Below the pieces are notes generated by a model, which saw nothing but the letters and a program-made list of their open reading frames with translations, did not search any database and was not told the DNA's origin. Shown piece by piece: positions 1-14,792 of a stretch of DNA of 64,000 bases. The DNA comes from Gammaproteobacteria bacterium (lineage in GTDB: Bacteria > Pseudomonadota > Gammaproteobacteria > UBA4575), in assembly GCA_965214675.1 (NCBI GenBank), contig OZ243969.1, positions 1,666,482 to 1,730,481 of the forward strand, given 5' to 3'. Made by a program: the position numbers and the translations under genes. Each line of letters opens with the position of its first letter. Within the stretch, counting starts at the first letter, position 1.

Positions 1-1368
1 ACTATGCGGCGTTTCATGCTCCTGAACCTTGATGAAAAGCACCTCATTCCGGTACCCGTCAATTCGCAGTCGATCGCCGGACTGGACGGTCTGGGGCTCA
101 CTCAGGCGCCGGTCATTGAGCCTGATCTTGTAGTTTTTCAGGTGGCGCAACTCGATGCGCATGCCTTTTTTCTGGATCCTGCAGACCCCGCTTTCGTTGC
201 ATACCGGGTCCAGTGCCAGACGTATCTCGTGGTGGTCCTTGGTGAGCTGCAGTTCCTGTTTTTCGCCAAGCGGCCAGGCATGACTGCCGATCAGCAGGTG
301 GGTAGGGCAGTTGGGCAGGCTTGCCAGCAGCCCGGAATTGGGTTCGAGGAGTTCGACACGGGTGGACTTGTCCCAGCTCAGGGTCGTGGTGTAATGCACA
401 GCCTCATCCCCGGCGCAGATTTGCTCGCGATAACGCAAGGCCTGGCGGGCGATGCGGGTCGGGTCTGTGCCCAGTGTGGCACAGCCTGGCAGAGTTTTTA
501 AGAACTCGTTCAGACCGAAGACCTGGTTGCAGGTGGGAGAGCATACGATCGCGACCTTGTGGTCGGGAAGGAGTTCACTCAGGCAAATCGCGATCTCCTC
601 GAAGACGGCCTGGTTGATCCCTAGCACCTCTTTTCTGTGCAGTTGAATGCGGTGGCTTTGCCCTTCCGTGTGCAGCTCACAACCGACGGACTCCAGCGAT
701 TGCAGTGTCGCCAGCCAGTGCGGAAGCCGTTCATAAAGGAGTTGCTCGTCTTCGCCTTTTTGCAGGGGATCAAAGCGGGTTTCCCTGACAAACGCCGCCG
801 CAACCCATTTGGCCTGTGCCTGGATCAGTGACTGAAGCCCGTAGGGAATGACTTTGCCCGGGCGGCTGGCGGACACCTGCTTGCGGTCCTGGGCCACCAG
901 GGACAGGATGGTCCGCTCCTGTAAAACTGCGAGCCAGACGAGCCTGGCCTCGGGAACCGGCCCGGGGATGGCAAGCACCGCCTTGTTGACGATCCCCAGC
1001 ACCGAGATGTCGAGCTTTTCACAGATACCGAGTGCCAGCCCCAGTTCCCGTTTGCGCAGTGTGCCGGATACGGCCAGCAGTGCATCGTGGTCCTGGCGGT
1101 CGAGCAGGCTCCAGGCGAACTGCAGGTGATGCAGTGCAAGCTCGGCATGACTGACGGCATGCCGGGTCGTGCTTTGCCCGCCAAGGTCTGCCCAGAACCC
1201 GGTGTTGATATCCTGTGGGCGCAGATGCATCTGCTTTTCGGTTGCGTTTCCGACCAGGATGTCGGTCGGCGTATCCACCAGGGCACAGGCCGGGCTGTTG
1301 GCCAGGATGCGTTTGCCGTCGCTGATCAGGATGCCGCTTTCGTACAGATCGATGACTACCGTGGACAC
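1..1368 (-). CDS. Divergent Hsp70/DnaK-like ATPase, partial; the C-terminus lies beyond the window start
   Basis: Open minus-strand frame with no stop from 1368 down to 1 (>=456 codons). GTG start at 1368-1366 sits behind a perfect AAGGAG Shine-Dalgarno at 1384-1379. The N-terminus, VVIDLYESGILISDGKRILANSPACALVDTPTDILVGNATEKQMHLRPQDINTGF, aligns to the DnaK N-terminus, GIDLGTTNSCVAV..RVLENAEGDRTTPS..LVGQPAKRQAVTNPQNT. It is absent from the supplied ORF track, apparently because its stop lies outside the window. The plus-strand ORF 4..501 is its antisense shadow. Confidence 0.45.
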   Translation of the reverse strand, partial: MSTVVIDLYESGILISDGKRILANSPACALVDTPTDILVGNATEKQMHLRPQDINTGFWADLGGQSTTRHAVSHAELALHHLQFAWSLLDRQDHDALLAVSGTLRKRELGLALGICEKLDISVLGIVNKAVLAIPGPVPEARLVWLAVLQERTILSLVAQDRKQVSASRPGKVIPYGLQSLIQAQAKWVAAAFVRETRFDPLQKGEDEQLLYERLPHWLATLQSLESVGCELHTEGQSHRIQLHRKEVLGINQAVFEEIAICLSELLPDHKVAIVCSPTCNQVFGLNEFLKTLPGCATLGTDPTRIARQALRYREQICAGDEAVHYTTTLSWDKSTRVELLEPNSGLLASLPNCPTHLLIGSHAWPLGEKQELQLTKDHHEIRLALDPVCNESGVCRIQKKGMRIELRHLKNYKIRLNDRRLSEPQTVQSGDRLRIDGYRNEVLFIKVQEHETPHS

Positions 1369-1384: not shown

Positions 1385-2185
1385 TTACTTGGGTTGCAGG
1401 TGGCGGATCAGGTTATGGTTGCAGTAGTTTTGTGTATCCAGGATCAGGCGCTCCTGCAGGAGCTGGAGCTGGTACACGATGAACATCAGCACGATACTGA
1501 TACACAAGGCGATCAGGGTGGAGTTGAAGGCTACACCCAGGCTTTCCGTGACTCCGGCAATGTCCCCTTCCACGGCCTTGTGCGCCTGACCCAATGCATC
1601 GCCGATACCGCGCACAGTTCCGAGAAACCCGATGGAGGGAATTGCCCAGGTGATGTAACGGATGATGGACAATTCGGAGTCGAGGCGCTCGGCTTCGGAT
1701 TCGCATACGATCTGGGTGGCGGTGGAGACATCCTGGATGCTGCACGTGGAGTTGAAGCGGTGCAAGGCGACCAACAGGGCACGCGGCAGCAGGCAGTCCT
1801 GCTGTTCTTGCGTCAGGGCCTGGATCTGCCGGGTGAGCTTATGCGTGTCCTGTGGCAGGAACTTGATGCCCTCCTTGGCGTGCAGCAGGTTCATTTCCAG
1901 CATGCCTCTTTCGCGCAGCAGGTGGGCGCTCTTGTAGCTCATGATCACCAGGGCCCACAGCATGAGAATGAAGCAGGCCTCCTGTTCGTAGTCGCGCACC
2001 AGCACATACACCGAGCGTTTCGGCACGTAGTCCTGGTCCAGGTTGATCTGGGCGGCCTGGTACTCGAGTTCAGCTTCGGCATTGGGCCGGATCACGGTGA
2101 CATAGGCCGTGTGCACGACGATCATGATCAGCAGCAGGCTGAAGACCTGATAGGTAAGCTCGGAGGAAAACGGTTTTATTGTCAC
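1385..2185 (-). CDS. MotA/TolQ/ExbB-family proton-channel protein
   Basis: 266 aa with multiple TM helices and the family signature IPSIGFLGTVRGIGDALGQA. Its start overlaps the stop of the upstream small gene in an ATGA arrangement. No ExbD/TolR/MotB-like partner is encoded in the window. Confidence 0.6.
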   Translation of the reverse strand: MTIKPFSSELTYQVFSLLLIMIVVHTAYVTVIRPNAEAELEYQAAQINLDQDYVPKRSVYVLVRDYEQEACFILMLWALVIMSYKSAHLLRERGMLEMNLLHAKEGIKFLPQDTHKLTRQIQALTQEQQDCLLPRALLVALHRFNSTCSIQDVSTATQIVCESEAERLDSELSIIRYITWAIPSIGFLGTVRGIGDALGQAHKAVEGDIAGVTESLGVAFNSTLIALCISIVLMFIVYQLQLLQERLILDTQNYCNHNLIRHLQPK

Positions 2186-2187
2186 GT

Positions 2188-2427
2188 TCAGATGTCCGTT
2201 GGAAAACTGACCGGCTTGTCGGCCGAGACTTCTTCGCTGGGCACGAACTCCTCCAGGGGCGGGAGCTGAAATCTGCGGTCTCGCGAAAACCTCACGTCGG
2301 TGGCGCTCTCCTCACCTTGTTCTGCTGCAACCGTGCCGACGTTTTCAGGAAGATCGTCGATGTGCTCGGATGCCCCTGCCAGTGCCGGACACAGCGCCAT
2401 CCACAGCACGGCCGTGTGAAGTCTCAT
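2188..2427 (-). CDS. Small secreted acidic protein (signal peptide)
   Basis: 79 aa. N-terminal MRLHTAVLWMALCPALAGA looks like a signal peptide, and the mature part is Glu/Asp-rich. It is tightly packed between the FHA/PEGA gene and the MotA-like gene. Confidence 0.4.
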   Translation of the reverse strand: MRLHTAVLWMALCPALAGASEHIDDLPENVGTVAAEQGEESATDVRFSRDRRFQLPPLEEFVPSEEVSADKPVSFPTDI

Positions 2428-2433
2428 CGTACA

Positions 2434-4821
2434 CTAGTCCAGGTAGCGTGCAATTCGAAAGCCAAGATCGACATGTCTTTTATTATCCTGATCCCGGTAA
2501 CTGAGTCGAGTGTTGCTGAGGTCGCTTCGCTTCCAGGAAGCGCCACGAACCACATGCTTGGTGCCCGTCGCAGGCCCTGTAGGATCCACATAGACGGCAT
2601 CGCTCAGGGCAGGATACAGGCCATGGTAGTCATGACTCCATTCGGCAACGTTGCCATCCATGTCAAACAGTCCCAGTGGGTTGGCCCTGAAGCTGCCCAC
2701 CGGTGCCGCCACTGCAAAGCCATCATCATACTCGTCCAGGGTGACCTCAAGAATGCCGGCCGCTGCGCGATCGGCATAGTTGCCCGTAATTTCAACCGGT
2801 GGATAGTTCTCGCCCCAGGCGTATTTCGCCAGCGTGCCATCGGCCTGCCAGCGGGCTGCCCATTCCCATTCACTTTCCGTGGGCAGGCGATACCCTGACG
2901 GGATCGGATTCTTGGCCATCCAGTTTCCGTTTCTTTCTTCGTACACGGCGTTCAACCCTTCCTGTTCACTCAGCCAGTTGCAATAGCGTACCGCATCGGC
3001 CCAGGTGATGTTGACTACCGGCAATTCAGGTGCTGACAGGTCATACCCCCTGTAGCTGCCGGAGTGATGAGAGGCCATGAAGGCTGCAAAACGGCCGTTG
3101 GTCACTTCGGTGGTCGCCAGATAGAACGGGCGTTGCAGTGAGACCGTGTGCAGGGTCTCGTTGGTGCGCCGCCCCTGCTCGCGCCTCGGAGCCCCCATGG
3201 AAAACTCGCCACCCTGCAGGCGTACCAGTGTCTCACCCAGATGATTGCGGATGCGCGCGGGCCCGGTACGGGGTCCATGGTCTGCCGATGGCTTCAACGA
3301 AACCTCGATCACTTGAGGGGCCTGCGGTTTCGGAGTCATGGTCTGTGAGTGGCTTTCGTAACCGGATTTTCGTACCTCAAGGCGATGCGGTGCACTCGGC
3401 AGGCTGAGCCGGAGTCTGCCGTGACCTGCCGACTGGCCCTGGACCAGTACCTCGGCGTCTTCAGGCACCGGGTGCACGATCACGGTCCCGAGGATCGCCT
3501 CGAGGCGGGCATTCACCGTCTGTTGCTCGCCGGGCCGGATACGAAGGCTTTGCCGGCTCGGGCGGTACCCGGGCTTGGTCAGGGTCAGGCGGTGTTGGGC
3601 ATTGGGTGCCAGGGCGATGGTCAGCGGAGTGGTGCCTTTTTCAACGCCTTCGATGAACACATGGGCACCTGAAGGCCTACTGGCGATCAGCGCATGGCTG
3701 GTTCCTGTCTGCAAGTGCACGGGTGCCAGCGCGAGTGGCTGGTCCGCCAGCACCCGGAAATCCGAAGTATGGGTGAGGTAATCTGGATGGCGCAGGTCCA
3801 GCCGGTACTCTCCCGCCATCAACTCCAGGCGCACGGGCGTTTTGCCTCTGCGGACACCGTTCAGCCAGACCTCGGCCAGTTCCGGTCGCGAATCGATGGA
3901 CACCTCGGACCATCCTGGCTGCAACTGTATCCGGAGATCCTGTTGAACCAGTTCGCCCTGCATGACCAATTGCGTCGTATACGGAAGGTAGCGCTCGGCG
4001 AGCGCCTGCAGCGTATAGGTCCCCGCCGGCAACTCGATGCGTTCGACCGGGGTGACTCCGAAGGGTTTGTCATCGATCAGCAGGTGCACGCCATGTTCGG
4101 GGACGCTGGTAATGTTCAGGTAGCCGGAATGTTTGAGCAGGGTGAAGGCGAGGGTCTGGGATGCGTGTGTACCGACCCGGATCTCATGGTCCAGGGGGTG
4201 GTACCCGGCCCGGGTTGCCTGCAGGCGGTATTCGCCCGGACGTACCAGATAGCGCCCGCGTATCTTGAGTGGCCACGGGGTGCCTTGCAGGCGGACCGAA
4301 TCCGCGGCTGGATCAATCTCGATTTTCAGGCTCTTGGCCGTAAATACATGGACCACGAGCAGCACCAGGGTGATCAACACGGCCGCACCTGCAAGGGAGA
4401 GAGCGCCGCGCAACCGCCACCCTGATTTTCTGGCAGCCATTTTGGGAGGCACCAGCGGCGAAATCACCTCGCCATGAGGCACCACAGGACGCGTATCGCT
4501 GTCCTGGCCGCAGGGCCCGTCCACTACGGAAATCGAGAAGGTATTGCCGACATGTGCGATCTGAAAGTGGGTCGCCTCGATTTGCAGTATGTCCCCGGGG
4601 TGCAATGCCGTTGGAACTTCCACGCGGTGGTGGTTCAGCCGCACCTCAATGTCCGCATCCTGAGGTTCGATATAGACCTGGTTGGCATGGATACTCAGAA
4701 GCGCTGCCGTTGCGCCTGCATGGACCTTTGATGCAAGCTTCAGTGGAAAATCGGCCGGAGTGTGCTGCCGTTGTCCTTGCGCATCCGTGACGAGGATCTG
4801 CTGGATGACTTTATTTGACAT
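2434..4821 (-). CDS. Multidomain envelope protein: FHA-like N-terminus, one TM helix, about 5 PEGA repeats, and a C-terminal FGE-sulfatase (SUMF1/PvdO-like) domain that lacks the catalytic Cys pair
   Basis: 795 aa. The N-terminus has an FHA-like motif (SKVHAGATAALLSIHANQVYI...HPGDILQIEATHFQI). A hydrophobic helix (LSLAGAAVLITLVLLVVHVF) is followed by repeated PEGA-like units, for example PSGAHVFIEGVEKGTTPLTIALAPNAQHRLTLTKPGYRP. The C-terminus carries FGE-sulfatase motifs (GGEFSMG, TEVTNGRFAAF, RLPTESEWEWAAR, GNVAEWSHD, VVRGASW) with only one Cys in the whole domain. Confidence 0.6.
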   Translation of the reverse strand: MSNKVIQQILVTDAQGQRQHTPADFPLKLASKVHAGATAALLSIHANQVYIEPQDADIEVRLNHHRVEVPTALHPGDILQIEATHFQIAHVGNTFSISVVDGPCGQDSDTRPVVPHGEVISPLVPPKMAARKSGWRLRGALSLAGAAVLITLVLLVVHVFTAKSLKIEIDPAADSVRLQGTPWPLKIRGRYLVRPGEYRLQATRAGYHPLDHEIRVGTHASQTLAFTLLKHSGYLNITSVPEHGVHLLIDDKPFGVTPVERIELPAGTYTLQALAERYLPYTTQLVMQGELVQQDLRIQLQPGWSEVSIDSRPELAEVWLNGVRRGKTPVRLELMAGEYRLDLRHPDYLTHTSDFRVLADQPLALAPVHLQTGTSHALIASRPSGAHVFIEGVEKGTTPLTIALAPNAQHRLTLTKPGYRPSRQSLRIRPGEQQTVNARLEAILGTVIVHPVPEDAEVLVQGQSAGHGRLRLSLPSAPHRLEVRKSGYESHSQTMTPKPQAPQVIEVSLKPSADHGPRTGPARIRNHLGETLVRLQGGEFSMGAPRREQGRRTNETLHTVSLQRPFYLATTEVTNGRFAAFMASHHSGSYRGYDLSAPELPVVNITWADAVRYCNWLSEQEGLNAVYEERNGNWMAKNPIPSGYRLPTESEWEWAARWQADGTLAKYAWGENYPPVEITGNYADRAAAGILEVTLDEYDDGFAVAAPVGSFRANPLGLFDMDGNVAEWSHDYHGLYPALSDAVYVDPTGPATGTKHVVRGASWKRSDLSNTRLSYRDQDNKRHVDLGFRIARYLD

Positions 4822-4835
4822 CGGCGCTTGTTGGA

Positions 4836-6395
4836 TCAGATCGTCTCTTTACACGAAATATGCACGCGTCCGTTTTTCATGTCCGGGGTCACGTTGAGAG
4901 TTTTTCGAACGTCTCGATAACCTGGTCGAGAGCCGAGGATCGTGTAGCGTCCTGGCCGAAGTTGCACGTCGTAGTGCTCGAATCGTCCGAGCTGGCCCAC
5001 CCGGAAGATGCTCACGTCGGTCTGGTTGTCCGAATACAGGGCAATTGAGACGGGCTGGCGGGCCTGTTCGATCACATCTTGCAGGGCGTTGGCTGCTTGC
5101 AGGATTCGCCGACCCGGACTTTCGTCAAGTGATACGATTTCATCCAGCAATGTCTGCACCTCAGCCGATACTTCAGCCGAGTACAGGCGCTCGCTGTGCT
5201 CAAGATAACCCCCCAGCATTGCCAGCAAGGCTGCACGGGATCTTGATCGCTCGGCGGCCTCCCTGGCATGGGCGGTCTGCGGGGCGAGCGCCAGAAGCTG
5301 CTGCCAGCTTTGTGCGGCATGTTCCCAATCCTCGCGTTCCTCAAAATGAAGAGCCTCGACTTCCAGTTTCGCGATTTTTTCCTCGAGCTCAATCTGGTCG
5401 ATTCTGAGCAGCCCCTGCGCCGGCCGGTCCGAATCAGGAACCAGAGCCTGCGCCTTGTGAAAGGCGGTGCGGGCATCATCAAACTGGCGGTCCTTTAGCG
5501 AGTCGTACGCGCGAGTCATCCACCGGGAAAACTCCTCCTGGTTCAATTGCTCAGTTATCCGGTTTAGAGCCGCCACCGCCTCGCCCGACAGCGGGTCCAG
5601 GGCGACGGCCTCCCGGTAGACCTGTTCAGCACCCTGAAGATGGTTGGCCGCTTCGAGGTTGCCGCCCCTGTCCAGCAAAGCGAAAAGTTCACTGAGCGTC
5701 GCCGCTCGCGAAAGGCCATCGAGAGCCTGGCGGTTCTGGGAATCCACGGCGAGTGCCAGGTTGAAATGATGTGCAGCCACCTCGCCCTGGTTTCTCGACA
5801 GGGCCTGCAGGCCCTGCTCAAGGGCTTCATCCAGCACGGCGGCGGCCTGTTTTTGAAGTGCTTCAAGGAGGTCAATCGCCTGTTCATAGTGATCGGCTGC
5901 CTCGGCAAACGCCTGCTCGCGAAAATGAGCATCGCCGTCGTGTCCCCTCGCCATTGCCTGGTCGTAGCCATCACGGGCCCACAACTCAACCCCCTGTTGT
6001 TGCAGGGCCTCCTGTTTTTCAAGCAGGTCCAGGAGCAGCTTTTCCGCATGCAGTTTCAAGGCCGTAATCTCCGGATCTGAAACCCCAGCCTGATTTTTGG
6101 CAAGCGCCTCTGGCATGCCGCTTGGCTCGGACAGGGGCTCCGGGGGCTCGAGCAGGTGTACGGGGGGCTCCTCGCTCAGCGGGCCATCCGTTCTTTCGCG
6201 ATCGACCCATTCAGGCAACGCCAAGAACACGAGTGCCGCGACGGCCACCAGTACGAAGAACAGGACAGTCGGCAGGGCTGCACTGCGCGCATCCTTCGAC
6301 CGTGTCCCGGCCGCAGACGGCGTTCGCACGGTGTCAGGGTCAATCTTTTTAACAGGGGTGGAATCGTCTTTTCGCATGGCAGGTAAAAATCGCAC
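4836..6395 (-). CDS. Transmembrane TPR-repeat protein with a Pro/Glu-rich linker and a C-terminal PEGA domain
   Basis: 519 aa. A TM helix (LPTVLFFVLVAVAALVFLAL) is followed by a TonB/TolA-like Pro/Glu linker (EEPPVHLLEPPEPLSEPSGMPE). Then come long TPR-like helical repeats and a C-terminal PEGA-like segment (LRPGRYTILGSRPGYRDVRKTLNV). Confidence 0.5.
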   Translation of the reverse strand: MRFLPAMRKDDSTPVKKIDPDTVRTPSAAGTRSKDARSAALPTVLFFVLVAVAALVFLALPEWVDRERTDGPLSEEPPVHLLEPPEPLSEPSGMPEALAKNQAGVSDPEITALKLHAEKLLLDLLEKQEALQQQGVELWARDGYDQAMARGHDGDAHFREQAFAEAADHYEQAIDLLEALQKQAAAVLDEALEQGLQALSRNQGEVAAHHFNLALAVDSQNRQALDGLSRAATLSELFALLDRGGNLEAANHLQGAEQVYREAVALDPLSGEAVAALNRITEQLNQEEFSRWMTRAYDSLKDRQFDDARTAFHKAQALVPDSDRPAQGLLRIDQIELEEKIAKLEVEALHFEEREDWEHAAQSWQQLLALAPQTAHAREAAERSRSRAALLAMLGGYLEHSERLYSAEVSAEVQTLLDEIVSLDESPGRRILQAANALQDVIEQARQPVSIALYSDNQTDVSIFRVGQLGRFEHYDVQLRPGRYTILGSRPGYRDVRKTLNVTPDMKNGRVHISCKETI

Positions 6396-6430: not shown

Positions 6431-7603
6431 TTAAATACTGTCCTGGAGGATCTTGTCCGCAGGCAGGCCCGTCTCTTGCAAATAGATTTCGCGCAACAGT
6501 TCGCGCCACTGGCGGTACTGTTCTTCAAGGGTGCCCGTGATCTCAACCGTGCGGCCCTGAATGTCCAAGACCAGGGGTTTCACCTCGGCCTTGAGGGAAT
6601 CTCCGAGTTCGCGGATGGCATCATCGTGAATCTGTGCTTCCCTGGCAATGTCGATGCCATCCTTGTACAACATGGCGCCGGTCGTCACAACGCCCGGGTA
6701 GTCTCTCAGCAGGCCCACAATCATGATCGCGGTGGCGGCAAGCTTGGTCCGGTTCGCGCGGCGTTCAATGGCCCGTTTTTGCTGGAGTTCAAGAAGGTAA
6801 TACCGGCGCCAGTTCGTATAGGGCCAGTGCATCACACTGTGAAAATTTGCGTAGTGCTCATTGATCGTATCGACGAACAGGTAGTCGCGTTCGCGGATCT
6901 TGCGTACCCGTTGCAGCATGGGATCATTCTTGGCCGGCAAGCGAGCCAGTTGCACCTGTCCGTTTGGCAGCCACACAAGATAGCCGGAAAACGAGTCGGG
7001 CGAGATGCTGGCGGCATAGCGCAACTCGGAGGTGTTTCGTATGCGGAGCAGTTGCCGGGCCGCCAGTTTCTTGCGGTGCCGGTAAATGTCATTGGCGATG
7101 CGGTTGTAGACGTGTTGGTAGACATCATCCCCTGGCTGGATGTCGACGTAGTCGTGTTCTGTCAGCTTGGCCTTGTACTTCCTGTCGAACCACAGGGTGC
7201 CGGTACTGTCCGAGACATGAGTGTGCAAAACCAGCGTCTCACCGTTTGAGATGATGATGGTGGCGCGTACGATGACATCCGCAATATGGGAGGCGGCCGG
7301 CAGCACCCGGATGGCGCCCCAACCGTAGGCGTGCTGCAAGGTCTCTTTCAGGTGATAGGCCATGTAACGCGCTTCGGCCGCACGGATATCCTCGTGGATA
7401 TTCTCCTCTTCCTGTTCTGGGGTAATCTCACCTTCATCGAACAGGAGCACCCCGACGTCCAGCAGAAGACTGTCCTGCAATTGCACCGTCTGCGATTCGA
7501 TTTCTTCCCCGCCTGAAACCCGTACCGTGTTCAGCGAACAGCTGCTAACCAACATGGCGATGGTCAGCCACAGGCACACCATCGAGTTTCCGGGCAGGGT
7601 CAT
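6431..7603 (-). CDS. Lipoprotein of unknown function
   Basis: 390 aa with a signal peptide and a lipobox (LVSSC). It has no recognisable catalytic motif and overlaps the upstream gene by 4 nt. Confidence 0.45.
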   Translation of the reverse strand: MTLPGNSMVCLWLTIAMLVSSCSLNTVRVSGGEEIESQTVQLQDSLLLDVGVLLFDEGEITPEQEEENIHEDIRAAEARYMAYHLKETLQHAYGWGAIRVLPAASHIADVIVRATIIISNGETLVLHTHVSDSTGTLWFDRKYKAKLTEHDYVDIQPGDDVYQHVYNRIANDIYRHRKKLAARQLLRIRNTSELRYAASISPDSFSGYLVWLPNGQVQLARLPAKNDPMLQRVRKIRERDYLFVDTINEHYANFHSVMHWPYTNWRRYYLLELQQKRAIERRANRTKLAATAIMIVGLLRDYPGVVTTGAMLYKDGIDIAREAQIHDDAIRELGDSLKAEVKPLVLDIQGRTVEITGTLEEQYRQWRELLREIYLQETGLPADKILQDSI

Positions 7604-8277
7604 TCGACTTCAGAGGAGGTCGAGGGCGTTACGCTCGCCTGTTGCTTCTTGTATTTGCGGTACTCGTCCCACAACTTCTCCCTGAGCACAGGATCGCGCT
7701 CGTTTTGTGCGGCTTCTCGAAGCTGGCGGGCGACAACATCGTCATCATCACCGCTGGGGATGTCGGCCGGTGGGGGTACCCGGTGCGCACCTCGTGTTCC
7801 ATGCTCGTCACTGCCTTCATCCGGATCGTCACCGGGTCCGCCGGACTCCGGGTTGCCCGCCTTGGCTACGGACCGGTCGGGCAGGCCTGCATCTGCCGGG
7901 TGTTCAGCCCCGTGCATATCTTCTGACCCGGATTCAGGCGCTTGTATATCTCCTGCAGCGGACGGCTGGTGGGCTTGTCTTTCGGCTTGCGCTTTTTCAA
8001 ATTCCTCGTGAATGGCTTCATCGTAGCGGCCCAGCGCCTCTTCGAGCTGCTGATCCAGCACAGCCACTTTTTCATCTTCGGTAGTGGCCGCGGCTTGCTT
8101 GTCTTTGGATGGCCGTTCATCCGGGGACCGTGCATTGTCTTCGGTTTGATTTTCAGTGGAAGGTGGCGAGTCAGGTGTCTGTGTGCGTGACTGGCGCTCC
8201 GGCTCCAGTGTGCTGCAGGCACCAAGCCAGACACCGAGCAACAAGATCAACAGGCACCGGAGGTCATGTGTTGTCAT
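7600..8277 (-). CDS. Acidic low-complexity lipoprotein
   Basis: The track ORF 7600..8433 starts at a far-upstream alternative codon. An internal ATG at 8277 gives MTTHDLRCLLILLLGVWLGACS, which is a signal peptide plus lipobox. The rest is Asp/Glu/Pro/Ser-rich. It is the first gene of the operon, after the 8278-8480 intergenic region. Confidence 0.45.
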   Translation of the reverse strand: MTTHDLRCLLILLLGVWLGACSTLEPERQSRTQTPDSPPSTENQTEDNARSPDERPSKDKQAAATTEDEKVAVLDQQLEEALGRYDEAIHEEFEKAQAERQAHQPSAAGDIQAPESGSEDMHGAEHPADAGLPDRSVAKAGNPESGGPGDDPDEGSDEHGTRGAHRVPPPADIPSGDDDDVVARQLREAAQNERDPVLREKLWDEYRKYKKQQASVTPSTSSEVE

Positions 8278-8480
8278 TGTTCTGCAATTCTGCCCGGCAC
8301 GTATTTCTGGGTCCGGATGAGATCTATTGAATATCACTATACTTGAATTGAGATCAGGTAGGGTAGCCTGCACCCGCGCCCGACAGAGGGCAAAAACGAT
8401 TGATTGGAATCCCTTATAGGGTCCATAGGTCACCGTGGAATTTGATTGACAAGCTCATGCATGGCGCCTAGAAAGGTGAC

Positions 8481-9293
8481 ATGCTATCCGCATTTTCATT
8501 GAATACCGAAGTGCTGGTTCGCCTGTCGAGCTTTGCGGGCCTGTTTGCGCTGTTCGCGGTGTGGGAACTCGTTGTCCCACGCCGCACCTGGCAGCATTCG
8601 AAAAGTGTGCGCTGGCTCAACAACCTCGCCATCATGGTACTGAACGGACTGATTGTGCGTCTCGGGATACCCCTGGCTGCGGTGGGCACGGCCGTCGCTG
8701 CACAAAACCAGAATCTGGGCTTGCTGAATATCGTTGACATGCCTGCGGTGATGGCAATCGCTGTTGCGATCCTCGCACTGGACTTCGTTCTGTATCTCCA
8801 GCACCTGGTGTTTCATCACGTCGATTTTCTGTGGCGGCTGCATCGCATGCATCATGCGGACCTGGATGTGGATGTCACCACCGGTTTGCGTTTTCACCCC
8901 ATCGAGATCGTGCTGTCCATGGGGATCAAGATGGCGGCCGTGCTGGTGTTGGGAGCTCCGGTCCTGGCGGTGATCGCGTTTGAAGTGCTGTTGAATGCAA
9001 GCTCGTTATTCAATCACGCAAATATCTACATTCCCGAAAAAGCAGATCGCATCCTGCGGTATTTCATTGTGACACCCGACATGCACCGCGTGCATCACTC
9101 GGTCGTGCGACAGGAAACCAACAGCAACTTCGGATTCAATGTTCCCTGGTGGGACTACCTGTTTCGAACCTACCGTGCTGCACCGCAGGCGGGGCAGACC
9201 GGCATGAACGTCGGGATTGAATACTTCCGTACCCGGCGCGACCTGTGGCTGGATCATTTGCTGATCCAGCCGTTTAGAAAACGGACCGGCTAG
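8481..9293 (+). CDS. Fatty acid hydroxylase / sterol desaturase family membrane protein
   Basis: Histidine boxes HHVDFLWRLHRMHHAD and HRVHH in a multi-TM protein. Confidence 0.6.
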   Translation: MLSAFSLNTEVLVRLSSFAGLFALFAVWELVVPRRTWQHSKSVRWLNNLAIMVLNGLIVRLGIPLAAVGTAVAAQNQNLGLLNIVDMPAVMAIAVAILALDFVLYLQHLVFHHVDFLWRLHRMHHADLDVDVTTGLRFHPIEIVLSMGIKMAAVLVLGAPVLAVIAFEVLLNASSLFNHANIYIPEKADRILRYFIVTPDMHRVHHSVVRQETNSNFGFNVPWWDYLFRTYRAAPQAGQTGMNVGIEYFRTRRDLWLDHLLIQPFRKRTG

Positions 9294-9402: not shown

Positions 9403-9918
9403 TTACTTGTGCAGGATTCCGCATGCAATACGGGGTCCAGCCGCTCCTGCAGGATCCGATTTGTAATCATCTGCGCCCTCGTGAATCACGATGGCCGCGC
9501 CGTCTTCATCGAACAACGCCGTATCCAGTACAAGCTGGGTATTCAGGATCTCGATCTCCAGACTCCCCGATTCCGGTACGTGGATATTCGGCATGTCGCC
9601 GGCATGCATTCCATCCTCGCCCAGGATGCCATGGTTGCGACCCTCCGGGTTGTAATGGCCGCCCGCTGACTTGAATGGTGGTTCGCATTTTCCGATGGAA
9701 TGCACATGGAAGGCATGGGCACCCGCTGGCAGGTCGTGCAGCTTCACGTGCAGGAGCGTGCCATGCGAAGTCCTGTGAAGGGTGGCCATCCCCACAGCGT
9801 CTCCGTTTGCGTTTTGTAATTTGGCGTATGCCTGTTTTGCGGCGCCGGCAAACTGCGGCATCACGGCCAACGCAAGGATGACGAGCAGTGCGGATACTGT
9901 GCGGTATCGGATAGTCAT
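9403..9918 (-). CDS. sodC: Periplasmic Cu/Zn superoxide dismutase
   Basis: Signal peptide followed by the motifs HAFHVHSIGKCE, GGHYNP, HAGDMPN, DDYKSDPAGAAGPRIACGIL. Confidence 0.8.
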   Translation of the reverse strand: MTIRYRTVSALLVILALAVMPQFAGAAKQAYAKLQNANGDAVGMATLHRTSHGTLLHVKLHDLPAGAHAFHVHSIGKCEPPFKSAGGHYNPEGRNHGILGEDGMHAGDMPNIHVPESGSLEIEILNTQLVLDTALFDEDGAAIVIHEGADDYKSDPAGAAGPRIACGILHK

Positions 9919-10537: not shown

Positions 10538-12256
10538 TCAGTGACCTGAAAGCGGCACGCCTACGGCCGGATTGGCGGCCAGGCCGATATCTCGAGCGTG
10601 CTGCTCGAAAGCCTTGTTCTTCCAGAAGAATGCACCCGGTATCGTCGTGGGGGTAACCACCACGTAAAACAGCGCGCGACCCGAGACTGCAACAAGCAGG
10701 CTGAGCGTGGCTGCGAGCATCCACGGCAGTGGATGGGTGATGCCGGCCAGGCCCAGCACGACCACGAGCAGCAGGGCACTGGCCAGAAGCGCGTTCCTGA
10801 GGTAGTAGACACGGCTAAAGGTTGTGGTCTGCACATAGTGCGAAACCGCGCCTTCGTGCGATGCGCCGGCCATGTCACCCCGGTGCCCGATCAGGCCCAG
10901 CGATTCCAATGCCAGGCCAGCGGCGATTGCAATCACCACGGGCAGGGATACTCCGGGAGTACTGGCAAGAGCCACCCAGCCGCCCAATGCCAACGACGTT
11001 CCGACAAAGGCGGTGGCAGTCTGCCAGTGGTTCCAGAACGGTCGAGCAGGAATCGTGTAGCAGCGCACCATGAAATAAAGTGTTGCAATGCCTGCAGCAA
11101 CTGCAAACAGGCCTGACAGGAGCGCTGTACTGTCGTAGCCTCCCAGGTGGGCGAGGAAAAACAGGCCGGTAGCTGCGCCGAACAAGGCACTCGCCAGCGC
11201 TTCGCGGCTCAGGTTCGAGTGGCGCAGGTTATTGAAACCACGGTAGAACCGCATTTTCTTGCCAAGATGCGCCGTCGAAGCCAGCATGCCGACGACTACG
11301 AGTGCGAGTGCAGCGAATGCGATCCAGCCCCCGGCCACCCCGGCAGCAAACGCGACTGCGAAGGCACCCACGCCGGCCTGCACTGCCAAGGTGAAGGCCA
11401 CCAGCGGGGTTTCCCGCGATGACAGGCGCGCGAGATTCCAGCGTTTCCGTACCCCCTGTTTGGGATCGATGACCGGGTGGAACGAGCGATCATCACCCTT
11501 GCGGTACTTGATGGGTTCCGAGTCCGGTCGTGTGACTTCAAGTGGTGCCTGTTTCACTTGCTGGAAACGGATATTCGGATTCGTGATCCCGGGGTCGGGA
11601 AACCCGGGGATGCATGTCTCGACTTGCTCGCGGCCCCTCGGCACGTTCTCGACCACGCCAAAATCCAGGGCGTTGCCCACGCAGGCGGACACGCAGGCCG
11701 GCTTCAAGCCGACCTCCAGTCGATCCACGCACATGTTGCACTTTTCGACCTGGCCTGCCACCGGATCAAGTTGCGGGGCATTGTACGGACAGACCCAGGT
11801 GCAGTAGCCACAGCCGAAGCAGATATCAGGATCCTGAATCACGGCACCATATTCAGGGTGCTTGGTATAGGCCCGCGTTGGACAACCCTTCAGGCAGACA
11901 GGGTCGTCGCAGTGGTTACAGGCCATCGAGAGGTTGATGCGTGTGTAGTCAGGATAGGTTCCCCCTTCCACGTAACCCACGGATCGAAAGCTCAAGTGTG
12001 CCGGCAGGTCATTTTTCTCGCTGCATGCAGCCTCGCACGCGTGACAGCCAATGCAGTTGTCCGCGGTGAAGTGGAATGCGTGCTGCTGGGTGCGGTTCGG
12101 GTTGTCACCGATGCCGGCATCGCCATTGATGTGGAGACTGACACCGCGCTCGCCATCTGCCAGCAGCTGGATCGGCTTGCCGTAGCGGTTCAACGCCTGC
12201 GCAGGGGTATCCGAAAGCCTGGCGTAGTCCGGTTCGTCGGTACGTAACGGAATCAC
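10538..12256 (-). CDS. Fused 4x[4Fe-4S] ferredoxin (DmsB/NrfC-like) and polytopic membrane anchor (DmsC/NrfD-like), no Tat signal
   Basis: Four Cys clusters (CIGCHACEAAC, CNHCDDPVCLKGCP, CFGCGYCTWVCP, CNMCVDRLEVGLKPACVSAC) are followed by about 8 hydrophobic helices. It is translationally coupled to the upstream molybdoenzyme gene (start/stop at 12256). Confidence 0.6.
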   Translation of the reverse strand: MIPLRTDEPDYARLSDTPAQALNRYGKPIQLLADGERGVSLHINGDAGIGDNPNRTQQHAFHFTADNCIGCHACEAACSEKNDLPAHLSFRSVGYVEGGTYPDYTRINLSMACNHCDDPVCLKGCPTRAYTKHPEYGAVIQDPDICFGCGYCTWVCPYNAPQLDPVAGQVEKCNMCVDRLEVGLKPACVSACVGNALDFGVVENVPRGREQVETCIPGFPDPGITNPNIRFQQVKQAPLEVTRPDSEPIKYRKGDDRSFHPVIDPKQGVRKRWNLARLSSRETPLVAFTLAVQAGVGAFAVAFAAGVAGGWIAFAALALVVVGMLASTAHLGKKMRFYRGFNNLRHSNLSREALASALFGAATGLFFLAHLGGYDSTALLSGLFAVAAGIATLYFMVRCYTIPARPFWNHWQTATAFVGTSLALGGWVALASTPGVSLPVVIAIAAGLALESLGLIGHRGDMAGASHEGAVSHYVQTTTFSRVYYLRNALLASALLLVVVLGLAGITHPLPWMLAATLSLLVAVSGRALFYVVVTPTTIPGAFFWKNKAFEQHARDIGLAANPAVGVPLSGH

Positions 12257-14439: not shown

Positions 14440-14450
14440 GACAGCATGTC

Positions 14451-14792
14451 TTAATGGCGGACCTGGATCCGACCCGCAATGACGCGAGTCGGGTACGTGC
14501 GGATTGAGACCGCATCGTCCTCGATACACTGGCCCGTTTTCAGGTTGAAGTGTTGTTTATAGACAGGTGAGGCCACCACAAGCTGCCCCTTAAGGTCCCC
14601 GACAATTCCGCGTGAAAGTACGGGCACGTTACTGAACGGATCGATAGCATCGATCACGAAGATGTCGTCAGAGCACGACACGCGAAACACCGCGACCTGG
14701 TCGTCACCTAGCAGCGCTCTTACACCCACATCGGGTATCAGCGCATCGAGTTCACAAACAGTGGTCCAAGGCATGGCTGGCATCCACTTCAT
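14451..14792 (-). CDS. nirD: Nitrite reductase [NAD(P)H] small subunit
   Basis: 113 aa, Rieske-like NirD family, overlapping the nirB stop by 4 nt. Confidence 0.7.
   Translation of the reverse strand: MKWMPAMPWTTVCELDALIPDVGVRALLGDDQVAVFRVSCSDDIFVIDAIDPFSNVPVLSRGIVGDLKGQLVVASPVYKQHFNLKTGQCIEDDAVSIRTYPTRVIAGRIQVRH

Follow-up and report, generated by a model that had tools for sequence, protein, structure and literature searches.

A conserved cell-envelope operon around a TolQ-like motor encodes a PEGA-repeat protein with an FGE-like head that lacks the FGE catalytic residues

The FGE/SUMF1 fold, a C-type-lectin-like fold, occurs in several described systems with which the protein analysed here can be compared. 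The catalytic residues of the S. coelicolor FGE (2Q17/6MUJ; human enzyme 1Y1E) are Cys272, Cys277, Ser269 and Trp234 (PMC2459300). PvdO of P. aeruginosa (5HHA, pyoverdine maturation) is a Cys-less periplasmic protein consisting of a single soluble FGE-fold domain, while PorK/GldK (9MZU, 9OTS) has a non-catalytic, structural role close to the outer membrane, in a PMF-motor machine with long periplasmic arms, where it is present as an outer-membrane lipoprotein together with PorN and GldLM. In TvpA (T. denticola variable protein 1, 2Y3C) and other DGR or 'FGS' domains the fold is used purely for binding (PMC7159879). A cytoplasmic FHA-fold domain without pThr-binding residues, followed by a single TM helix and tandem periplasmic modules, is found in T3SS YscD/EscD/PrgH. 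In addition, a motor family was described in MBE in 2025 (Origin and Evolution of Bacterial Periplasmic Force Transducers, PMC12204202), in which tolQ is combined with a heterologous TMH-vWA pair bearing a TolR-like transpore helix, with no tolR; it is present in Proteobacteria and Verrucomicrobia, and its function is given as unknown.

The window, i.e., the whole stretch of DNA that was analysed, comprises 64,000 nucleotides of a gammaproteobacterial contig (OZ243969.1, assembly GCA_965214675.1). A first-pass annotation, made from the letters of the window, had placed an ORF of 795 aa at positions 2434-4821; the ORF is real, but it lies on the minus strand. The gene (g4) and its parts are as follows:

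2434..4821, minus strand: g4, 795 aa, ATG start; from N- to C-terminus a pseudo-FHA head, a TM helix, five PEGA domains and an FGE-like head of the Cys-less type
4522..4800, minus strand: N-terminal cytoplasmic FHA-fold domain, degenerate, aa 8-100 (family profile, Pfam, AF2 model)
4339..4395, minus strand: single transmembrane helix, aa 143-161 (hydropathy, AF2 model)
3292..4335, minus strand: five tandem PEGA-type beta-sandwich domains, aa 163-510 (family repeat HMM, AF2 model, Pfam)
2437..3255, minus strand: FGE/SUMF1-fold (C-type-lectin-like) head, aa 523-795 (Pfam, PDB sequence matches, Foldseek, invariant columns)
2494..2547, minus strand: loop that corresponds to the catalytic one of FGE, aa 759-776, RGASWKRSDLSNTRLSYR (HMMER alignment to S. 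coelicolor FGE)

This domain make-up was established from the sources given in brackets. Homologues of g4 were found in a number of 199, with full-length orthologues reaching down to 34% identity, and all orthologues are named 'hypothetical', 'PEGA domain-containing' or 'SUMF1/EgtB/PvdO family'. The AlphaFold2 model has a mean pLDDT of 79, its low-confidence loops within the FGE-like head being 545-554, 668-699 and 766-773. Conservation within the protein is highest in the FGE-like head, which contains 46 of the 69 invariant columns and is 46-48% identical even in the most distant orthologues, compared with 12-24% in the FHA head; the FGE-like head is thereby shown to be under strong purifying selection.

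Pfam FGE-sulfatase (PF03781) was matched by aa 530-792 with an E-value of 9.5e-48 (163.5 bits vs. a cut-off of 23.3), and the profile was covered end to end (3-255/255). Sequence matches in the PDB included the S. coelicolor FGE (1.6e-21) and also PorK, PvdO and TvpA. When the model was searched with Foldseek, the top match was TvpA (E 3.4e-13, TMt 0.69), followed by FGE (4e-13) and PvdO (7e-13, TMt 0.67-0.70), meaning that TvpA and the Cys-less PvdO match the head at a significance equal to that of true FGEs. The head shares with FGE the fold and the domain length, with 27-30% identity in the structural alignment, and the motifs quoted in the first-pass annotation are present, namely RLPTESEWEWAAR (aa 645-657), GNVAEWSHD (aa 723-731) and VVRGASWKRS (aa 757-766), and GNVxEW, RGxS and YRLP(T/S)ExEWE of FGE are kept.

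C104 and C614 are the only Cys of the protein, and the latter, located in RYCNWL (aa 612-617), is the sole Cys of the last 270 aa, exactly as had been read from the sequence. In the HMMER alignment, the catalytic stretch 'SYLCHDSYCNRY' of the S. coelicolor FGE lies opposite 'SWKRSDL--SNTR' in g4: Cys272 corresponds to R765, Cys277 to a gap and Trp234 to A726 (within 'GNVAEW'), while Ser269 is kept as S762, which is nearly invariant in the family. A Cys in the catalytic-equivalent loop was found in 0/30 aligned orthologues, the active-site Trp is absent from all 30, and in four of them the FGE-like domain is wholly without Cys. Loss of the FGE catalytic residues, the Cys pair of which had already been reported missing, is therefore a property of the family, and g4 was rejected as an FGE (Cys272/Cys277 in S. 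coelicolor, Cys336/Cys341 in human) given that the pair is absent in 30/30 orthologues. With both the Cys pair and the Trp of the active site missing throughout the family, these alignments support the view that the head, while having the FGE fold, would be unable to perform FGE chemistry. Unlike FGE, the domain of g4 is preceded in the same chain by a TM helix and five PEGA domains. No Pfam Sulfatase match was found among the 27 window ORFs scanned, which included every ORF of at least 400 aa, in agreement with the earlier claim that the window has no sulfatase gene, and no such gene was present in the annotated orthologous loci.

The invariant residues of the head are rich in Arg (8) and Trp (5). 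W763, R772 and R776 are invariant in the catalytic-equivalent loop, the invariant charged residues are R546, R551, R552, E555, E572, E651, D684, D700, D731, R759, R772 and R776, and the family has a specific, invariant basic insert (RREQGRRxNE). A conserved pocket with many charged invariants, as in this head, would also suit an enzyme. The orthologue alignment contains no invariant Cys or His in the head, and since 46 of the 69 invariant columns are nevertheless concentrated there, binding or scaffolding would explain the domain most economically. The first-pass annotation had likewise preferred binding or scaffolding, or else a different chemistry, over sulfatase maturation.

Alternatively, the head could catalyse a reaction without the help of Cys, as has been claimed for PvdO, acting on a periplasmic substrate (a g5-like peptide or envelope glycan) and being only positioned by the stalk. 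We consider this improbable, even if the high conservation of the head with its many invariant charged residues, the retention of S762 as the equivalent of the active-site Ser269, and the presence among its best structural neighbours of PvdO, which is Cys-less too and carries the NCBIfam name 'dihydropyoverdine dehydrogenase', speak for it. The orthologue alignment shows no invariant Cys/His/Tyr cluster able to hold Cu or Fe or to serve in redox chemistry, the active-site Trp is replaced by Ala, and Pfam gives only PEGA-type and FGE domains, without the DinB-type iron domain of EgtB/OvoA. Moreover, genes for biosynthesis, redox reactions or cofactors are absent from the operon, the partners being structural, motor or envelope proteins. 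Membership in the known families was rejected as well: the PvdO model (NF051459) scored 71.1 bits against a cut-off of 500, with no pyoverdine genes in the window or the loci, EgtB 48 bits vs. 360, SenA 58 vs. 420 and OvoA 21 vs. 400, and the DinB-type domain of these sulfoxide/selenoxide synthases was not found by Pfam.

The sole hydrophobic helix of g4 spans aa 139-161 by hydropathy (peak 2.58) and aa 143-161 in the AF2 model. Among 30 family members, the 15 residues flanking this helix contain on average 3.7 K+R on the N side vs. 1.2 on the C side, and the N side is the richer one in 26/30. By the positive-inside rule, this excess predicts an N-in/C-out orientation, and together with the signal peptides of the partners it suggests that the FGE-like head lies in the periplasm, where the first-pass annotation had put it. 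The domain is very probably a periplasmic, non-FGE binding head. It resembles PvdO in this predicted location, but it forms the tip of a membrane-anchored stalk. The stalk consists of five PEGA-type units (aa 163-229, 233-301, 304-371, 378-441, and 445-510), each recognised by the family repeat HMM at E-values of about 1e-22 to 1e-25; Pfam PEGA (PF08308) gave an E-value of 1.2e-44 with four stretches above threshold, which like the FGE-sulfatase match cannot be due to chance, and the AF2 model has five all-beta modules with pLDDT 86-94. The number of five repeats given in the first-pass annotation is reproduced by both the HMM and the model.

What the first-pass annotation missed, and what changes the most likely purpose of g4, is the operon context. 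The further members within the window are:

7600..8433, minus strand: g1, acidic low-complexity lipoprotein with lipobox LGAC and a conserved C-terminal helix motif (ORF)
6431..7603, minus strand: g2, 390-aa lipoprotein, lipobox ...VSSC
4836..6395, minus strand: g3, 519 aa, N-terminal TM helix, TPR repeats, C-terminal PEGA-like domain
2188..2427, minus strand: g5, 79-aa secreted mini-protein (ORF)
1385..2185, minus strand: g6, MotA/TolQ/ExbB-family proton-channel protein, 266 aa (Pfam MotA_ExbB)
1..1368, minus strand: g7, cytoplasmic, Hsp70/actin-fold NBD-like with a C-terminal FHA domain, ~456 aa, running to the window edge

The genes are separated by gaps of 2-35 nt or overlap. Synteny was counted in 58 loci with at least 5.5 kb downstream of g4 and in 54 loci with at least 5 kb upstream. 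The operon is syntenic in ~50 genomes from several bacterial classes, with equal gene order across Gamma- and Alphaproteobacteria, Desulfobacteraceae and Nitrosomonadaceae, and its components are also present, partly rearranged, in one Opitutales locus. Upstream, g1 was found in 48/54 loci, g2 in 50/54 and g3 in 52/54. The first has no Pfam match; the second contains a PelC/PqiC/TolB-N/FlgP-type alpha/beta domain with a long helical hairpin, which belongs to the PelC/PqiC/TolB-N/CsgG fold class and has the fold of ring-forming outer-membrane lipoproteins. The TPR repeats of g3 match Pfam TPR_2 (E 3.7e-12), its TM helix is seen in the L001 orthologue, and the PEGA HMM derived from g4 matches its C-terminus (E 1e-5 in the window; 34/63 family members). 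Between g4 and g6, an ORF of at least 45 aa is present in 60/60 loci, and the C-terminal tail of g5, ...FVPSEEVSADKPVSFPTDI-COOH with its invariant FPxDI, was recovered in 44/61 by a strict regex, with variants in nearly all others. Further downstream, g7 is optional, occurring in 37/58 loci. Besides the motor, all operon partners are envelope proteins with lipoboxes, signal peptides or TM helices. Membership of g4 in this operon, and the conservation of that membership, are established by these counts: g4 is a fixed, core part of a conserved, uncharacterised cell-envelope operon of about nine genes around a TolQ-like motor.

The motor module is formed by g6, g8 and g9. The product of g6, located two genes downstream of g4, matches Pfam MotA_ExbB (E 1.2e-13) and weakly NCBIfam TolQ/ExbB, is 85% identical to the L001 orthologue, and occurs in 50/58 loci. 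Since g8 and g9 lie beyond the left edge of the window, their presence here is deduced from a 94%-identical contig (covering the start of g8 only) and from the orthologous loci. Each of these two paralogues combines a TolR-like helix that bears an Asp with a coiled coil of ~100 residues and with a vWA domain whose MIDAS is intact. The N-terminal helix carries an invariant Asp (D15), the TM-Asp motif being present in 58/58 and 53/57 of the orthologous loci for the two members, and the DxSxS MIDAS in 58/58 and 57/57. The pair occurs in 53/58 loci, and together with g6 in 50/58. A sequence profile of the g8/g9 helix did not find ExbD/TolR in the PDB, and no operon product has an ExbD/TolR Pfam match; TolR-likeness rests on the motif, the context and the AF3 models of PMC12204202. 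With a tolQ homologue, no tolR/exbD and two different adjoining genes for TM-tethered vWA proteins, g6/g8/g9 fit the description of that motor family, the identity being by description and not by accession. Neither PMC12204202 nor its supplements mention an FGE, PEGA, FHA or Hsp70-like partner; the link of g4, g1-g3, g5 and g7 to this motor comes from the synteny found here.

Taken together with the fold neighbours of the head, among which are the non-enzymatic binders TvpA (the top Foldseek match) and PorK, this context leads us to regard g4 as probably a non-enzymatic, inner-membrane-anchored and periplasm-spanning docking stalk, a core component of an envelope machine that the PMF would drive. 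We infer its binding role, the identity of its partners, the coupling of force and the matching heights in the following way: g6 and the g8/g9 pair would form a PMF-driven motor of the 5:2 type, the coiled coils of g8/g9 would carry the vWA heads across the periplasm, and the rigid five-PEGA stalk of g4 would bring the FGE-like head to a similar height. Candidate ligands or docking partners of the head at this height are the vWA heads, the tail of g5, the lipoproteins and envelope glycan, and movement of the motor might thereby be coupled to something at the outer-membrane or peptidoglycan level. The FHA-fold head, where present, may provide a phospho-independent cytoplasmic docking surface, as in T3SS YscD. 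On this reading, g4 is neither a sulfatase-maturing enzyme nor a phospho-signalling receptor.

The latter point concerns the FHA-like head, for which the first-pass annotation had proposed a coupling to cytoplasmic phospho-signalling. The FHA assignment itself holds at the family level: the window sequence alone is sub-threshold for Pfam FHA (18.9 bits vs. a cut-off of 20.7), but the family profile matches the FHA domain of Ki-67 at E 5e-6, followed by EmbR, KIF13B, GarA and Rv1747, with six more FHA proteins besides Ki-67 below 0.01, and the AF2 model gives a beta-sandwich with pLDDT in the 80s. The coupling is not supported. A periplasmic sensor or scaffold whose FHA head reads phospho-threonine and connects it to a Ser/Thr kinase is in our view very doubtful, as the pThr-binding Arg ('GR') and the His of 'SxxH' are each present in 0/26 family members (Ser of SxxH in 7/26, structural Asn in 23/26), in the window protein 9 residues are deleted precisely at the pThr-binding loop, and the head is missing in 40/58 orthologues, which have a short cytoplasmic N-terminus of ~30 aa instead. 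Pfam FHA is matched by 11/26 heads, and Yop-YscD_cpl, the phospho-independent T3SS-type model, by 10/26. The genuine FHA fold would be compatible with such a reader, and so would the second FHA domain in g7, two genes downstream: the g7 family profile matches the FHA domains of Rv0020c (1e-6) and EmbR, besides Hsp70 NBDs (3kvg 1e-6, DnaK 4e-6), and 8/23 members match Pfam FHA, some of them canonical by score (down to 9e-14) and with an SRxH-like consensus. However, the g7 of the window itself matches no Pfam FHA model, and no Ser/Thr kinase or phosphatase gene is found nearby: Pkinase and PP2C are absent both from the 27 window ORFs scanned and from the stretches of ±10 kb at three orthologous loci annotated with Pfam. 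With T3SS YscD, g4 shares the layout, but its periplasmic modules are PEGA and FGE folds and not ring-building motifs, other T3SS genes are absent, and most orthologues do without the FHA head.

In the T9SS, a ring that contains an FGE-like protein is met by the long periplasmic arms of a PMF motor (PMC10202324), which is also the logic proposed here, and g4 could be a proteobacterial homologue of the PorK/GldK ring protein, the operon then encoding a cryptic type IX-like secretion or gliding apparatus. GldK (TIGR03525) is indeed the best NCBIfam match (E 2.7e-31), and both the sequence search (E 1e-13) and the fold search (E 7e-8) match PorK structures. Nonetheless, such homology is highly improbable: true FGEs and PvdO outscore PorK in both searches, the GldK model reaches 109.3 bits (cut-off 350) and is matched in its C-terminal half only, and g4 has no lipobox and is anchored in the inner membrane by its internal TM helix, with PEGA spacers. 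Its neighbours are TolQ-like channel, vWA, TPR and Hsp70-like genes, the motor with its vWA partners is unrelated to GldLM, and relatives of GldL/M/N, SprA/Sov or PorV were not seen in the operon. The DGR proteins differ from g4 too, as their targets are hypervariable at the C-terminal face, whereas the equivalent region of g4 ranks with the most conserved ones; the annotated neighbouring genes showed neither a reverse transcriptase nor a template repeat.

Another reading, to which we give limited credence and which we consider rather unlikely, is that g4 attaches to peptidoglycan or another envelope glycan through its head and its PEGA repeats and so serves as the cell-wall anchor (stator tether) of the motor. 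PEGA has been described as a peptidoglycan-associating module (PMC7159879), the C-type-lectin-like fold and the Trp/Arg-rich invariants, typical of sugar or anionic-ligand sites, would suit it, and the motor has no peptidoglycan binder of the OmpA/MotB type (no OmpA-like domain in g6, g8 or g9, the matches of g8/g9 being coiled-coil and VWA only). On the other hand, the peptidoglycan-binding role of PEGA is an annotation, none of the FGE-fold proteins matched here is known to bind glycan, and, judged from typical domain sizes, a stalk of five domains plus the head should overshoot the peptidoglycan layer. The known FGE-fold binders TvpA and PorK bind proteins.

Five loci have a long g4-type ORF without any motor gene (L027, L028, L069, L074, and L081), and three further loci are without g6 only. 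With regard to g1, its true start is probably M53 (nt 8277), and the 94%-identical contig has its orthologue annotated with a length of 229 aa.

The gene under study (g4) is one long open reading frame on the minus strand at 2434-4821, where the plus-strand translation contains stops throughout, and encodes a protein that is anchored by a TM helix and has a stalk of five sandwiches, with an FGE-fold tip devoid of the FGE catalytic residues. In Pfam searches, aa 530-792 matched the FGE-sulfatase model over its full length (E 9.5e−48) and PEGA repeats were recovered as well (E 1.2e−44), and a repeat HMM derived from family members delimited five PEGA-type units (aa 163-229, 233-301, 304-371, 378-441, and 445-510). 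The whole protein has two cysteines (C104 and C614). An AlphaFold2 model, generated with 30 orthologues as input (mean pLDDT 79) and with three poorly modelled loops in the FGE-like head, consisted of the following parts:

aa 8-100: N-terminal beta-sandwich
between the beta-sandwich and the helix: disordered linker
aa 143-161: single helix
after the helix: five all-beta modules, pLDDT 86-94
aa 523-795: C-terminal mixed domain

One TM segment was detected by hydropathy. The 15 residues flanking it contained on average 3.7 K+R before vs. 1.2 after the segment (30 members), and the N-terminal side was the richer one in 26/30 family members. The stalk and head are predicted to be periplasmic because of this agreement with the positive-inside rule, a placement reinforced by the secreted and lipoprotein neighbours of the gene. 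The first-pass annotation had placed the FGE-like domain on this same side of the membrane; all the motifs it quoted were found in the 795-aa translation, and its domain order, its count of five PEGA units and its single Cys within the last 270 aa proved correct by Pfam, repeat HMM, structural model and Cys count.

The best PDB sequence match of g4 was the S. coelicolor FGE (E 1.6e−21), whose active site comprises Cys272, Cys277, Ser269, and Trp234 (Carlson et al., PMC2459300). In the alignment, where 'RGGSYLCHDSYCNRY' of the enzyme faces 'RGASWKRSDL--SNTR' of g4, Cys272 corresponds to R765, Cys277 to a gap, Ser269 to S762 and Trp234 to A726. None of the 30 aligned full-length orthologues (34-94% identity) had a Cys in the catalytic-equivalent loop, C614 was variable, four sequences were devoid of any Cys in the FGE-like domain, and no His in this domain was invariant. 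With no loop Cys in any orthologue and no invariant His, FGE chemistry, which depends on the Cys pair, is excluded for the whole family, and the absence of this pair noticed in the first reading of g4 extends to all its relatives in the alignment. The tip is at the same time the most constrained part of the protein, as it holds 46 of the 69 invariant columns (mostly Arg and Trp, none of them Cys or His) and retains 46-48% identity to the most distant orthologues vs. 12-24% for the N-terminal FHA head.

Foldseek placed the tip equally close to TvpA (E 3.4e−13), true FGEs (4e−13), and the Cys-less PvdO (7e−13), with PorK (7e−8) and EgtB (2e−7) being more distant. NCBIfam scores were all sub-threshold (GldK 109 bits vs. 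350, PvdO 71 vs. 500, EgtB 48 vs. 360), so that, judged by these models, g4 is not a member of any of the three named families. The tip therefore adds a further Cys-less FGE fold to PvdO, PorK/GldK and the ligand-binding DGR target TvpA, while g4 itself is none of these proteins. A PvdO-like, Cys-independent enzymatic activity of the head is improbable, considering that the head contains no candidate redox centre and that the gene is not located in a biosynthetic context. Automatic names carried by the g4 family, such as 'SUMF1/EgtB/PvdO family nonheme iron enzyme' or 'formylglycine-generating enzyme required for sulfatase activity', should accordingly be treated with caution.

The family profile of the N-terminal domain matched the FHA domains of Ki-67 (5e−6), EmbR, KIF13B, GarA, and Rv1747, while the individual heads matched the Pfam FHA model in 11/26 and the T3SS YscD-type model in 10/26 cases. 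Taken as a family, these domains are genuine relatives of the FHA fold by profile comparison, and the earlier description of an FHA-like head holds for the fold, which is degenerate at the phosphopeptide-binding residues: when Ki-67 was aligned to the profile (26 members), the pThr-binding Arg and the His of SxxH were each found in 0/26 heads and the Ser in 7/26, and the g4 of the window has a 9-residue deletion exactly at the pThr-binding loop. The head is also facultative, since the family exists in two forms, one of ~800 aa with the FHA-fold head and one of ~690 aa with only ~30 cytoplasmic residues (orthologous loci L003-L071). Among orthologues with enough flanking sequence, the short form (TM at ~aa 30, n = 40) was commoner than the long one (TM at ~aa 150, n = 18). 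Presence of the head did not correlate with presence of g7, the second FHA-bearing gene of the operon (found with 13/18 long and 25/40 short forms), and BLASTP detected no similarity between the two FHA domains. Neither a Ser/Thr kinase nor a PP2C phosphatase was found among the 27 window ORFs searched with Pfam, nor was there one in the 10 kb on either side of three annotated orthologous loci. Given a head that is degenerate and facultative and the lack of a kinase or phosphatase in these regions, the coupling to cytoplasmic phospho-signalling proposed in the first-pass annotation is not supported, and a model of g4 built on it, missing its defining features, is very unlikely. The order of FHA domain, TM helix and periplasmic repeats resembles that of YscD-type proteins, and the degenerate head, where present, may act as a phospho-independent docking surface, as in YscD.

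The gene is part of a compact operon on the minus strand, in which neighbouring genes overlap or are 2-35 nt apart; the other genes are, in transcription order:

7600-8433 (-): g1, acidic lipoprotein
6431-7603 (-): g2, 390-aa lipoprotein
4836-6395 (-): g3, TM helix, TPR repeats and C-terminal PEGA-like domain
2188-2427 (-): g5, 79-aa secreted protein
1385-2185 (-): g6, MotA/TolQ/ExbB-family protein (Pfam E 1.2e−13)
1-1368, to the window edge (-): g7, Hsp70/actin-fold NBD-like domain and FHA domain
past the left edge of the window (L001:14812-16914 in an orthologous locus): g8 and g9, paralogues of ~350 aa each

A scan with one genome per species provided 80 loci, which were compared by tblastn with the nine operon products, and in other genomes the operon was matched gene by gene. 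The same gene order was present in Gammaproteobacteria (Woeseiaceae, Halieaceae, Porticoccaceae, Steroidobacteraceae, Microbulbifer, Spectribacter, and Methylophaga), in Alphaproteobacteria (Sneathiella and one Rhodospirillaceae MAG), as well as in Desulfobacteraceae and Nitrosomonadaceae; an Opitutales locus (L069) had the motor genes as well, though in a different order and on the other strand. Cultured carriers include Microbulbifer halophilus KCTC 12848, Pseudohalioglobus sediminis, Spectribacter acetivorans P385, and Sneathiella sp. HT1-7. The trio g6, g8 and g9 was found in 50/58 loci with at least 5.5 kb of downstream sequence, and, where at least 5 kb were available upstream, g3 was found in 52/54, g2 in 50/54 and g1 in 48/54. 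The g4 gene is co-inherited with those for the TolQ-like channel and for the two vWA proteins that have an Asp helix and a coiled coil. The g5, g7, g8 and g9 proteins are all 'hypothetical' in NCBI. A reading as a defence system was discarded, as the only PADLOC hits were weak matches of the MotA-like protein to ZorA and noise from coiled coils.

As the window ends inside g7, g8 and g9 are described from the orthologous loci. Each starts with a basic stretch followed by a helix '...FSLSFLD(V/I)xxCGFGA...' with an invariant Asp, continues with a spacer of ~100-130 residues having only generic coiled-coil-type Pfam matches, and has a vWA domain whose DxSxS MIDAS is intact; the Asp motif was found in 58/58 and 53/57, and the MIDAS in 58/58 and 57/57 of the sequences, respectively. 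The operon contains no ExbD, TolR or MotB gene, and a profile of the helix (44 positions) retrieved nothing relevant from the PDB, with no ExbD or TolR detected. A recent study (PMC12204202, MBE 2025) described tolQ homologues without tolR that tightly co-occur with heterologous pairs of TM-tethered vWA proteins in Proteobacteria and Verrucomicrobia; the 'transpore helix' of these proteins bears a conserved Asp that AF3 models seat in the TolQ-like Thr ring, and the function was given as unknown. At the level of description, g6, g8 and g9 match this family exactly, and motif, context and literature together make g8 and g9 candidate TolR-like axle subunits of the TolQ-like channel. FGE, PEGA, FHA or sulfatase are not mentioned in that article or its supplements.

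The remaining genes differ in how regularly they accompany this core. The optional g7 was found in 37/58 loci, being absent from about a third of the operons; its single sequence had no match in the PDB, and the family profile was needed to recognize a relative of the Hsp70/actin-fold NBD (Hsp70 NBD 1e−6, DnaK 4e−6) followed by an FHA domain (Rv0020c 1e−6), which is canonical in some orthologues (Pfam E 9e−14) and too degenerate for Pfam in the window. A small ORF (g5; L001:12395-12643) separated g4 from g6 in 60/60 loci. Its C-terminus is nearly invariant, with F-x-P-[ST]-E-x-[IV]-S-[EA]-D-x-x-[VI]-x-F-P-x-D-I-COOH in 44/61 sequences (e.g., FVPSEEVSADKPVSFPTDI), and a divergent subfamily is cut down to a signal peptide and '...ISLNSPVSFPVDI', so that its mature product may have only ~13-20 residues. 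From its sequence, g5 looks like a dedicated peptide ligand. The idea that FxP[ST]E mimics the CxPxR sulfatase motif was weakened, because the divergent subfamily is without P[ST]E and keeps only the distal ...ISLNSPVSFPVDI. The g2 family profile had no match among PDB sequences, and fold comparison alone gave a lead, a ring-former fold. In g3, the TM helix is N-terminal and the PEGA-like sandwich at the C-terminal end is related to the g4 repeats, hence two operon products have periplasmic PEGA modules. The low-complexity g1 has a conserved C-terminal motif ...DDDVVARQLREAA...DPVLREKLWDEYRKYK; its longest ORF (277 aa, GTG) is probably over-extended, as the signal peptide begins at M53 (~nt 8277), and the orthologue in a 94%-identical contig was called at 229 aa.

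We consider it rather probable that g4 is a non-enzymatic binding or scaffold subunit of the TolQ-like/vWA motor system, while any one specific partner for its tip is much less certain. In such a system, g6 together with g8/g9 would form a 5:2-type PMF motor. Coiled coils rise by ~0.15 nm per residue, which over ~100 residues would raise the vWA heads of g8/g9 by ~15-20 nm, and the five PEGA sandwiches and head of g4 should reach a similar height. The FGE-like tip could then be the docking or ligand-binding counterpart at the level of the vWA heads, with the MIDAS heads of the vWA proteins, the tail of g5, the lipoprotein g2, and envelope glycan as candidate partners. A variant of this binding model, in which g4 anchors the motor to peptidoglycan or another glycan, is plausible given that the motor has no OmpA-like domain of its own, although we regard it as unlikely.

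Beyond the binding or scaffold role of g4, the operon as a whole could, rather speculatively, encode an undescribed PMF-driven trans-envelope machine of Proteobacteria, apparently of an origin separate from that of the T9SS, with a stalk and a gripping head among its parts. Here, the TolQ-like pentamer would turn a heterodimer of the TolR-like helix/coiled-coil/vWA proteins, and the PEGA stalk would present a pseudo-FGE head that has lost the chemistry and kept the peptide-binding groove. This head would grip the C-terminal tail of g5 (...hSxxxxhxFPxDI-COOH) or a ring of the g2 lipoprotein, and the torque of the motor would be put to work at the outer membrane. An inner-membrane PMF motor, long periplasmic arms and an outer-membrane-proximal partner are also what Tol-Pal and GldLM-GldKN have; nevertheless, the operon belongs to neither of them, nor to the YscD-type systems. 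A cryptic T9SS with g4 as its genuine PorK/GldK homologue is highly improbable, as the defining features are missing. If true, the parallel with GldLM-GldKN would be a functional one, and represent a second case in which the FGE fold was independently recruited as a PMF motor's counterpart in the periplasm.

A Cys-less FGE-fold domain alone is not new, since such folds are known from PvdO, PorK/GldK and DGR variable proteins. The novelty lies in its constant presence within a widespread operon whose products are all 'hypothetical' in current databases. It was not until 2025 that the motor core (TolQ-like channel and two TolR-like-helix/vWA proteins) was flagged, without known partners, and its link to g4, g1-g3, g5, and g7 appears undescribed in the searched literature, in which we found no papers on a PEGA/FGE-like and TolQ-like/vWA system (PMC7159879 deals with different, conflict systems). 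Synteny provides a parts list for this orphan motor, consisting of a PEGA/pseudo-FGE stalk that would span the periplasm, a protein with TPR and PEGA domains, a lipoprotein of ring-former fold, a secreted peptide whose tail is invariant, and a cytoplasmic Hsp70-like/FHA protein. With this candidate set, the question of what vWA force transducers act on becomes directly testable in the cultured carriers.

The surroundings of the operon vary. In Pseudohalioglobus sediminis, it is preceded by a 414-aa 'TonB C-terminal domain-containing' (UniRef) protein (L002:4828-6072) and followed by two small unknown genes and an M48 peptidase (L002:16515-19293), all of which are absent beside the operon of the window. 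A fatty-acid hydroxylase-family gene at 8481-9293 (+) adjoins the upstream end, likewise in L001 and L083, and is itself adjoined by a periplasmic Cu/Zn superoxide dismutase at 9403-9918 (-); the latter arrangement is the same in L083, and in L001 the dismutase is located ~13 kb off on the other side of the operon. Further upstream, a respiratory or assimilatory nitrogen/oxyanion cluster occupies 10538-17329 (-) and includes:

14789-17329 (-): NirB-type nitrite/sulfite reductase
12256-14529 (-): molybdopterin oxidoreductase
10538-12256 (-): after the molybdopterin oxidoreductase, an unusual single-ORF fusion of a 4Fe-4S dicluster subunit and a DmsC-like membrane anchor
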